NCBI GenBank assembly: GCA_964463165.1
Contig: CAYXBK010000010.1
Span: 29,648 to 93,647, forward strand
Direction: 5' to 3'
DNA length: 64,000 bases
Source of the DNA: an uncultured Chitinophagales bacterium
GTDB lineage: Bacteria > Bacteroidota > Bacteroidia > Chitinophagales > BACL12
Below the pieces are notes generated by a model, which saw nothing but the letters and a program-made list of their open reading frames with translations, did not search any database and was not told the origin of the DNA. This document shows, piece by piece, positions 6,230 through 6,443 of the stretch (position 1 is the stretch's first letter; each line of letters starts with the position of its first letter). Position numbers and translations under genes: made by a program.

Positions 6230-6443
6230 AGTCAGGAGTCAGGAGTCAGGAGTCAGGAGTCAGGAGTCAAGAGTCAGGAGGGCTGGCGCAGCAACCTGCC
6301 GGCCGACGCAAGGCGCATGTGCTGCTGGCAGGCGGGCACCGAACCCAGAACTCTGAACCCCGAACCTGCCACCCTTCACACAATACCCTCGCCTCGGCAG
6401 GCAGGCCCCGAACCCCGAACTCTGAACACCAAACCCCGAACTT
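6230..6443 (+). repeat. Heptamer-periodic intergenic element, copy A: (AGTCAGG)x7, core GCTGGCGCAGCAAC, then two stem modules each followed by (NNNGAAC)4-5
   Basis: Read directly: 7 heptamers at 6230-6278, core at 6282-6295, CCTGCC/GGCAGG stems at 6295-6300/6327-6332 and 6365-6370/6396-6401, and GAAC heptamers at 6338-6365 and 6407-6441. Confidence 0.9.

Follow-up and report, generated by a model that had tools for sequence, protein, structure and literature searches.

Heptanucleotide arrays with a persistent architecture and rapidly changing sequence fill gene spacers of a Chitinophagales bacterium and may provide G-poor leaders

Why would the spacer between two genes be built of seven-nucleotide units, laid out in a fixed order from the stop codon of one gene towards the start codon of the next? 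The question arises from a 64-kb stretch of the genome of an uncultured Chitinophagales bacterium (hereafter the window, meaning the whole 64,000 nucleotides analysed), in which three independent loci, A, B and C, carry such elements. They precede gcvH, a DUF4286 gene and kdsA, respectively, which are functionally unrelated housekeeping genes. The layout is common to 3/3 copies: stop codon, purine-rich 7-nt array, GC-rich palindromic core and G-poor YCNGAAC array. All lie between co-directional genes and share one orientation relative to them (3/3). A preliminary description, made from the letters of the window, had proposed a real family with one tripartite layout and one polarity; this stands, and its coordinates all check out. 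We show that the architecture is kept at each locus in related genomes while the units, their number, the centre and the hairpin modules are replaced, and we weigh whether the G-poor arm may serve as a leader for translation.

Within the window, the family is confined to these loci. With one mismatch or fewer, GAACNNNGAACNNNGAAC has 22 matches in the window against 0.3 expected from shuffles, all of them in loci A, B and C. Tandem Repeats Finder (TRF) reports period-7 arrays at all three loci; a scan for periods of 4-12 nt over the window and seven related loci returned 12 period-7 arrays against 0-4 at each other period, and all 12 fall at loci A, B and C. No further copies or fragments of the element were found elsewhere in the 64-kb window. 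TRF also lists a period-6 repeat of ATAACC at 24860-24892 (5.5 copies, 85% matches).

The right arms follow a grammar of fixed and free positions. From 55 units of the window and its orthologs we derive the consensus Y-C-N-G-A-A-C: C2 is found in 53/55 units, G4 in 44/55 and the AAC of positions 5-7 in 53-54/55, and positions 1 and 3 are free. At every locus and ortholog the left arms contain 0-22% C and are mostly 60-78% purine, and the right arms with their tails contain 6-21% G; these compositions bear out the earlier remark that the sense strand changes its character at the core, where a purine-rich, C-poor arm gives way to a G-poor one. In the window, right arms measure 28-100 nt, with 36-49% C and 8-21% G, and the elements form GC-rich islands in a genome of ~38% GC. 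Their G-poverty is exceptional rather than a general trend, because the 60 nt upstream of 51 gene starts contain 18% sense-strand G against 19% genome-wide; gene starts here, as in the folding and viral adjacency tests below, are crude open reading frame (ORF) calls. Three unrelated right arms also display a 14-nt super-period from two alternating heptamers: GAACTCT/GAACCCC at 10051-10145 of the window, and, in the related contigs described below, TCAAATC/TCAATAC at 5118-5180 of L090 and AATTGTC/AATTATC at 11891-11926 of L092.

Since the length differences between orthologous arrays are not divisible by 3, the 7-nt period is not a coding one, as had been argued. A translated extension of KdsA is excluded on the same ground and by its homologs, which start at MFN. 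The register, said earlier to be maintained across the core, does run on from the core into the right array, but the left array is set off from the core by 3 nt (AGG or ATT); where two arrays differ in their units, phase between them is in any case meaningless. The core assigned to copy C fared likewise: the 13-mer GCTGCGCAGCAAC is present, but a larger imperfect hairpin, CTTACGCA-N8-TGCGCAG, contains it as no more than its 3' half, and the predicted fold of this hairpin is weaker than the L087 and L088 versions of related lineages. With its flanks, the copy B core forms a 6-bp stem, UUGCUG-GCG-CAGCAA (z = -2.0 against shuffles). As for the two hairpin modules of copy A, sequence reading and folding give them an identical stem and unrelated loops. 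The right arrays of copy A end 38 nt upstream of the gcvH ATG at 6480, with a Bacteroidetes -7 box (TAnnTTTG, here TAtcTTTG) 15 nt upstream of that ATG; from the last unit of copy C to the kdsA ATG (56488-56486) there are 6 nt.

Table 1. Features of the three elements in the window; positions on the minus strand are given in reading direction where the feature was read that way.
Feature	Position	Strand	Description
Copy A	6230-6443 (region)	+	Between a 510-aa ORF (4697-6229) and gcvH
TAG stop of upstream ORF 4697-6229	6227-6229	+	Copy A starts at the next base
Copy A left array	6230-6278	+	AGTCAGG x7, the sixth being AGTCAAG; sense strand purine-rich, C-poor
Copy A junction AGG and core	6279-6295	+	Core GCTGGCGCAGCAAC at 6282-6295; small GCTG/CAGC stem-loop
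Copy A hairpin module 1	6296-6332	+	CTGCCGG...CTGGCAGG; ~42-nt insertion relative to the L090 ortholog
Copy A right array 1	6338-6365	+	YCNGAAC x4, G-poor
Copy A hairpin module 2	6366-6405	+	CTGCCACC...GGCAGGCAGG; ~41-nt insertion relative to L090
Copy A right array 2	6406-6441	+	YCNGAAC x5
Copy A tail	6442-6479	+	G-poor; Bacteroidetes-type -7 promoter box TAtcTTTG = TATCTTTG at 6457-6464
Copy B	10001-10144 and tail	+	Between the gene of a 607-aa TPR protein and the DUF4286 gene
TAA stop of TPR gene	9998-10000	+	Copy B starts at the next base
Copy B left array	10001-10033	+	GGATTCAAG AGCCAGG AGTCAGG AATCAGG ATT; shorter than that of copy A
Copy B core	10034-10047	+	GCTGGCGCAGCAAC, a 14-mer identical to the copy A core
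Copy B right array	10048-10144	+	~14 YCNGAAC units with 14-nt super-period (GAACTCTGAACCCC)
Copy B tail	10145-10203	+	59 nt, 5% G, up to the DUF4286 ATG at 10204
Copy C	56495-56609 (region)	-	Between ridA and kdsA
TAG stop of ridA	56612-56610	-	Copy C starts at the next base
Copy C left array	56609-56578	-	TAGAAAG TAGAAGG TAGAAAG TATCAAG TAGG
Copy C centre	56577-56551	-	CTTACGCAAGATTGGCTGCGCAGCAAC, imperfect hairpin; 3' half is the core GCTGCGCAGCAAC (56563-56551)
Copy C right array	56550-56489	-	YCNGAAC x8 (56550-56495), then AACAAA

Is the architecture kept in relatives? The nearest named homologs of the flanking proteins, at 69-80% identity, belong to metagenome-assembled genomes (MAGs) labelled 'Chitinophagales bacterium' or 'Bacteroidetes bacterium'. 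The ridA-kdsA spacer (locus C) was recovered from four further contigs that represent three other lineages (98%, 81% and 81% DNA identity). All of them have the tripartite layout, with right arms that end in ...CAACAA(A/T)A-ATG. Left arms are built of AGTAGAA in the window, of AGTCAGG/AGCCAAG in the 98% strain and, in both 81% species, of AGTATCA. Two lineages have a hairpin, CTGACGCA-loop-TGCG(C/T)AG, as their centre; that of the window is degenerate, and the 98% strain (L086) has none. The L087 and L088 centres fold into 7-9-bp hairpins (z = -2.5). Right-arm unit numbers across the lineages are 4, 5, 8 and 8.

Loci A and B change in the same manner. A 55.5-kb ENA contig (L088 and L090) is syntenic with the window, its TPR protein being 95% and its KdsA 88% identical. 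At locus A it has 4 left units where the window has 7, one mismatch in the core, and nine right units; both hairpin modules are missing, which makes them clean insertions of ~42 nt and ~41 nt in the window. The copy A tail is identical in L090 through GCGCAA, and the last ~10 nt before the gcvH ATG differ. At locus B of L090, five AGTCAGG units are followed by a core of reduced length and then, up to the ATG, by a right arm of TCAAATC/TCAATAC, and the junction AGTCAGGAGGGCTGGCGCA occurs at both its loci A and B, as in copy A. The strain from SRR28595019 (L091) carries at locus B the left arm and core of the window followed by a hairpin module; the latter is homologous to the window locus A module, and window copy B has no such module. 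Finally, in GCA_016706865.1 (L092; TPR protein 69% identical) locus B reads stop, (GTGAGTA)n, a CCAGGT...ACCTG hairpin and (AATTGTC AATTATC)n to the start: this TPR-DUF4286 spacer has no recognisable sequence in common with the window. Eight assemblies of the same species include one-copy and two-copy alleles of ACGATTC, a difference of 7 nt. Its kdsA locus has another upstream gene and no arrays. In its SprA-gcvH spacer (L092 7920-8090) lies a perfect 19-bp inverted repeat, ATTCGTGCATTCGTGGCTA ... TAGCCACGAATGCACGAAT, each arm being two ATTCGTG-type heptamers; a lone copy of the left arm follows ~110 nt downstream.

Turnover of units, cores and modules is thus visible even between strains at 93-98% DNA identity, under an architecture that each locus keeps. 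As arms at different loci of one genome are more alike than orthologous arms, replication slippage together with exchange between loci is the probable mechanism. The suggestion of slipped-strand variable spacers is borne out by the ortholog unit-number differences and by the 7-nt ACGATTC allele across the eight assemblies, and the comparison of unit counts across strains, which had been recommended, did reveal length polymorphism (4 vs 7 left units at locus A, 4-8 right units at locus C).

The elements fragment short-read assemblies. Contigs that carry the same proteins break at them: L001 (1-40) begins with the base that directly follows the copy A core, and the Logan contig L091 (2446-2500) ends inside the hairpin module. 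For this reason they are likely to be under-represented in MAGs. The core motif, for which the preliminary description had recommended a search of related genomes, was not found outside orthologous loci of close relatives in scans of public genomes and JGI metagenomes. A search for the core with GAAC units in 185,579 species-representative genomes gave 81 stretches, essentially all single chance matches in coding regions of GC-rich genomes, and the family in none; a stricter core-plus-array pattern gave 3 matches and 0 true copies in JGI metagenomes.

To what class do such elements belong? Repetitive extragenic palindromes and the mosaic elements built of them (REP/BIME), transposable elements of the miniature inverted-repeat kind (MITEs), CRISPR and riboswitches had been set aside at the outset. 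At gathering thresholds Rfam 15 finds only tRNA in the whole window; in E-value mode over the elements it yields only a spurious plant microRNA match (E = 0.38). A CRISPR array is excluded by contiguous units of 7 nt (CRISPR repeats have 23-50 nt and unique spacers), and a MITE by the lack of terminal inverted repeats, by the orthologous positions and by the fact that only the 13-14-nt core and the unit type are common to the copies. The centre and the CTGCC...GGCAG modules, taken by themselves, are like REP/BIME: GC-rich imperfect palindromes of ~15-40 nt in co-directional spacers, with presence or absence between strains. The bulk of the element, however, is tandem 7-nt arrays and not palindromes, and our scans of public genomes and metagenomes, together with 64 kb of the source genome, gave no genome-wide high copy number. 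Both the central stem-loops and these modules are indel-polymorphic, with fold z-scores from -2.5 to +1.0. No sigma-70-type promoters were found inside the elements, and no intrinsic terminators (GC-rich stem-loop with U-tract) within those in 4500-10600, where the cores are followed by C/A-rich sequence. G-quadruplex (G4) potential is weak to essentially absent: there is no canonical G4 motif (G3+, loops 1-7) on either strand of any copy.

The preliminary description did not recognise a described repeat class in the elements, but such a class exists. Intergenic heptameric simple-sequence repeats (SSRs) that have this polarity, form convergent pairs, persist at their loci and vary in length are on record (PMC4692102, PMC4679880). 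In Xanthomonas, Rehm et al. 2015 reported ~185 arrays of (GGGAATC)n/(GGGANTN)n per genome, and in Nostoc arrays of GGGGA(C/T)T (PMC4692102). These repeats are intergenic, mostly between co-directional ORFs, with 70-75 convergent (inverted) pairs per genome; they occupy the same loci in related species, with extensive variation in length and sequence (PMC4692102). After an ORF it is their coding strand that is rich in G, before an ORF the non-coding one; most arrays are transcribed, no function was found, and G4 and i-motif structures form in vitro (PMC4692102). Passages of the same paper cite heptanucleotides of Calothrix (PMC4692102). The window elements agree in period 7, intergenic position, polarity, convergent pairing, locus persistence with turnover, and fixed plus free positions: the unit, which on its G-rich strand reads GTTC-N-G-R, follows the 'four fixed, N, fixed, N' pattern of GGGA-N-T-N (PMC4692102). 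They differ in unit sequence (no GGGAATC or GGGGA(C/T)T tandems in the window), in having no G3-4 tract, in the conserved palindromic core with insertable hairpin modules, and in their AT-rich Bacteroidota host.

A second relative is the TAACTGA repeat of Beggiatoaceae, Cyanobacteria and five Bacteroidetes, which MacGregor 2015 found in forward orientation within a few nt of start codons, replacing the Shine-Dalgarno sequence; one reverse-oriented set directly follows a stop codon, and a translational role was proposed (PMC4679880). The author suggested binders of the S1, Csp or CsrA type, citing CspB binding to heptamer repeats, and described larger heptamer-repeat assemblages in Bacteroidetes spacers, in which contigs break (PMC4679880). 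Copy C, 6 nt from the kdsA ATG, and L090 locus B, which runs to the ATG, resemble it in having an array near the start, and the GAACTCA/GAACTCT units of the window have an xAACTxx flavour. The arrays of copies A and B stop 38 nt and 59 nt short of the start. The window holds 0 tandem TAACTGA and 7 singletons on both strands; its units are degenerate (YCNGAAC) rather than exact, and MacGregor does not describe a paired-arm layout with a core.

Tandem heptanucleotides dispersed in non-coding DNA and variable between strains were reportedly described from cyanobacteria as STRR by Mazel et al. in 1990. Their units CCCCAGT, TTGGTCA and CAACAGT are not tandem in the window, the phylum is another, and no tripartite layout is described for STRR. 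Bacteroidota have ribosome standby leaders that are unstructured and CA-rich, and A-rich initiation regions that are independent of Shine-Dalgarno pairing; these are defined functionally and not as repeat families, and typical Bacteroidota leaders are A/U-rich, unlike the right arms of the window with their 36-49% C in a genome of ~38% GC. Because the elements are tandem 7-nt arrays, intergenic, polar, convergently paired and length-polymorphic at their loci, they are, on sequence criteria, new members of a known but little understood class, the intergenic heptanucleotide SSRs (long SSRs); what is peculiar to the window elements is their palindromic core, together with the hairpin modules that can be inserted.

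The same heptamers are found in other lineages. We scanned IMG/VR contigs for heptamer arrays alongside composition-matched control heptamers. There were 37 stretches of (GAACYCN)4GAAC, 60 of (GAACCCT)3 and 28 of (AGTCAGG)3, against 2, 3 and 4 of the controls (CACGACT)3, (GACGTAG)3 and (AGCGATG)3; as arrays these heptamers are 7-30 times commoner than the controls. Since the contigs span 34-72% GC, many hosts must be involved. Counting as adjacent the start codon of an ORF of at least 60 codons no more than 12 nt downstream, 28 of the 85 non-redundant C-rich arrays abut a start in the C-rich sense, vs 6/85 on the opposite strand (p = 2e-4). With one array per contig (57 viral contigs) the figures are 18 vs 3 (p = 0.0015). 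Where an inverted second array lies within 150 nt, the G-rich-then-C-rich order is seen 15 times and the reverse 0 times, a count that corresponds to ~9 distinct pairs in 5 contigs, such pairs reading alike on both strands. Several viral elements run stop, (AGGGTTC)3, ACGCGCAAGCGG..., (GAACCCT)n, then CCC-ATG; the resemblance of their centre ACGCGCAAGCGG to the ACGCAAG of window centres is suggestive only. Viral (AGTCAGG)n arrays gave no positional (stop-codon) signal; the unit is free of stops in all frames, so that most of these arrays fall within open ones. A literature search for the unit sequences returned only eukaryotic telomere and primer contexts.

Several array-bearing contigs deserve separate mention. 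The GC-rich viral contigs L111/L117 (IMGVR_UViG_3300006175_000271) and L128/L139 (IMGVR_UViG_3300037692_000252) hold many elements of the form (AGGGTTC)3-5-ACGCGCAAGCGG+~20 nt-(GAACCCT)n-CCC-ATG, and these have no Shine-Dalgarno sequence before the ORF. Another viral contig (L163 1149-1215 / L172 22-90) contains (AGTCAGG)5 AGTCAGC AGGGCTGGCAC, in which the 9-mer junction AGGGCTGGC is also the one found behind the AGTCAGG arrays of copy A and of both L090 loci. At least 5 separate AGTCAGG/AGCCAGG/GAAGATAGA arrays occur in the 13 kb of L151 (IMGVR_UViG_3300014656_000076); several of them end in AGGAGG a few nt before an ATG, and the G-rich arm may serve that host as a Shine-Dalgarno region as well. 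(GAACCCA)n lies at the very ends of giant-virus MAG contigs (L109 1-62, L132 1850-1914; GVMAG-M-3300009068-11), which could be telomere-like ends or assembly breakpoints; judging from paper titles, the Plasmodium telomere repeat is the related GGGTTCA.

Outside viruses, a JGI soil metagenome contig (L083 1400-1560; Ga0066669_10082348; 54% GC, non-Bacteroidota) has an ORF end ...ALRSN-TGA followed by GAACCGA GAACTAT GAACTGG CAACTGA and, ~40 nt later, a near-perfect inverted copy of these GAAC heptamers, making a heptamer-armed hairpin. In Bacteroidales (L084, reverse strand, ~437-700; L073; L085), ~13 GAACAAG/GAACAAA heptamers directly after a stop codon give way to ~8 GAACAA hexamers; the period switches from 7 to 6, and a classical hairpin-plus-T terminator lies downstream.

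What, then, could the element do? Bacteroidota initiate translation without Shine-Dalgarno pairing and depend on unstructured leaders. In the model that we favour, and to which we give about an even chance of being right, a slippage-driven compound heptanucleotide microsatellite fills the spacer between two co-directional genes and its G-poor arm acts as a structure-free, Shine-Dalgarno-less leader. The purine-rich array extends from the stop codon; a central GC-rich palindrome or hairpin, sometimes enlarged by ~42-nt CTGCC...GGCAG modules, comes next, and the YCNGAAC array reaches up to, or near, the downstream start codon. The element would be transcribed with the flanking genes. At B and C no -7 box lies between array and start, such a box being present before gcvH only; these two elements are therefore probably part of intercistronic mRNA. 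The G-poor arm would keep the RNA before the start codon unfolded as a standby or landing zone for Shine-Dalgarno-independent initiation, and this zone would be held apart from the upstream cistron and its terminating ribosome by the central hairpin and the purine-rich arm. The arm may be kept for this, or tolerated only in one orientation, as an unstructured leader.

Predicted folding is consistent with such a role. From core to start the RNA is G-poor and nearly structure-free by prediction, and copy C folds worse than 200/200 of its shuffles (z = +2.1). We computed start regions (-60..+20) for the 51 starts called in the window, whose mean folding energy is -10.7 kcal/mol (sd 4.7): gcvH (-0.8 kcal/mol) and kdsA (-2.0 kcal/mol) are the two least structured of the 51, and the DUF4286 gene stands at -0.5 kcal/mol. 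The start regions of array-less orthologs fold at -7.4 to -19.2 kcal/mol. The unstructured C/A-rich leader that had been put forward as one option for these arrays fits both these energies and the start-codon adjacency of the same units elsewhere, which point to, rather than demonstrate, its function.

Several points weigh against a leader, and many of them favour its main rival, a neutral or selfish microsatellite, which we regard as possible though not probable. Here slippage at a favoured 7-nt unit would simply fill neutral space, and polarity would persist because the opposite orientation is harmful, putting G-rich, structured or Shine-Dalgarno-like RNA before a start. We infer both the transcription of the elements and their effect on translation. 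Low structure follows trivially from a G-poor composition and need not be a selected property; in a short spacer, an array that expands would end up next to the genes on both sides even if it did nothing; and the window offers only three independent loci. The arrays of copy A may even lie upstream of the transcription start and outside the leader, since a conserved promoter-like box separates them from gcvH. The element is missing at the same loci in other relatives (L096-98, L104-107 and L095), with no visible replacement; ordinary AT-rich TPR-DUF4286 spacers without arrays occur in two lineages (TPR protein 67% and 64% identical). Neutrality would also suit the extremely fast turnover of units, cores and modules, seen even at 93-98% DNA identity, the unrelated functions of the downstream genes and the slippage hypothesis of Mrazek for heptamers, as quoted in PMC4692102 and PMC4679880; Rehm et al., who looked for a regulatory role of the Xanthomonas repeats, found none, and their tests gave no function for the Nostoc heptamers either (PMC4692102). 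Slippage and drift do not, however, predict five of seven unit positions near-invariant over unlinked loci and lineages with 1 and 3 free, and locus B keeps its architecture down to 69% protein identity though it keeps no sequence. The excess of heptamer arrays over composition-matched controls in unrelated viral contigs and their strong start-codon adjacency bias likewise speak against neutrality.

Readings that assign the arrays to a protein, to pairing or to DNA structure are less likely than either of these. The contrast between fixed positions (C2, G4, A5, A6, C7) and free ones, a G-strand grammar that matches Xanthomonas (GGGANTN)n (PMC4692102), the predicted single-strandedness of the arrays and the S1, Csp and CsrA-type binders proposed for TAACTGA (PMC4679880) would suit a phased platform on which a single-strand RNA-binding protein with a ~7-nt footprint (an OB-fold of cold-shock or S1 type), one per unit, controls translation or stability. 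This protein is still hypothetical, and a sequence-specific binder would not tolerate same-locus right units that differ wholly in relatives (TCAAATC/TCAATAC; AATTGTC/AATTATC), with left arms more variable still; we find such a platform unlikely. The long imperfect hairpin that the preliminary description suggested for copies A and B would pair the left arm with the right and have the core at its tip. It might act as terminator, mark a processing site or be a translational-coupling switch that the terminating ribosome melts, but it is not supported and we think it very improbable. AGTCAGG and TCTGAAC are partly complementary, copy A in its minimum-energy fold does pair the left arm with the distal right arm, GC-rich viral contigs contain perfectly complementary (AGGGTTC)n...(GAACCCT)n in G-then-C order only, and the soil contig L083 has complementary arms too. 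Yet the z-scores of -1.2 (A), -1.9 (B) and +2.1 (C) are none of them significantly better than shuffles; at locus C the left unit varies (AGTAGAA, AGTCAGG, AGTATCA) while the right arm stays YCNGAAC, without covariation; L090 locus B sets AGTCAGG opposite TCAAATC, with which it is unable to pair; and U-tract terminators were not found within the elements.

Loading of Rho deserves equally little credence. C-rich, G-poor, unstructured RNA is the textbook composition of Rho utilization (rut) sites, and a right arm of this kind after a stop codon would recruit Rho and terminate or attenuate transcription before the next gene. The window right arms, unstructured and with the C and G contents given above, have this character, B and C match rut composition (C-rich, G-poor, unstructured over at least ~60-80 nt), and copy A has a separate promoter box after its arrays. 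B and C have no such box before the next gene, though, so that efficient termination would silence kdsA, an essential lipopolysaccharide gene; the right arms of relatives can be C-poor and A/T-rich (L092: 23% C), and frequent direct abutment to start codons suits a leader better than a terminator. Least credible of all is an element acting as DNA, whether a phase-variable promoter spacer, non-B DNA (G-quadruplex, i-motif, cruciform) or phased sites for a double-strand DNA-binding protein. Unit-number polymorphism, the position of the copy A arrays upstream of a promoter-like box and the G4/i-motif formation of Xanthomonas and Nostoc heptamers in vitro (PMC4692102) would favour it; against it stand the lack of a canonical G4 motif, a 7-bp spacing that places successive GAAC sites on different helix faces, downstream genes that are housekeeping rather than surface or contingency genes, and the absence at B and C of a promoter to modulate.

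A wider version of the leader model can be imagined, doubtful as we consider it. A cross-phylum class of intercistronic translation elements would be made from a few preferred telomere-like heptamers, GAACYCN (whose complement is of GGGTTCA type) and AGTCAGG, with a G-rich arm first, then a small hairpin, and then a C-rich arm that replaces the Shine-Dalgarno sequence and recruits ribosomes directly or via a conserved OB-fold protein reading the four-fixed/N/fixed/N grammar. It would be used by Bacteroidota and by phages of GC-rich, Shine-Dalgarno-using hosts, its unit number tuning expression and evolving by slippage.

To our knowledge, heptameric repeats are the commonest long microsatellites in bacteria, and we know of none for which a function has been shown. 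Here, a Bacteroidota lineage has whole gene spacers made of heptamers and keeps them so while every base turns over: the architecture is conserved without conservation of sequence. The fixed and free positions of YCNGAAC mirror those of the Xanthomonas repeats, and in many unrelated viral contigs the same units prefer to abut start codons in one orientation. Taken together, these three observations make a translational role testable. If the G-poor arm is indeed a ribosome landing zone that works without a Shine-Dalgarno sequence, the element would be a naturally tunable, slippage-driven translation element, and the purpose of heptamer repeats would itself become testable.

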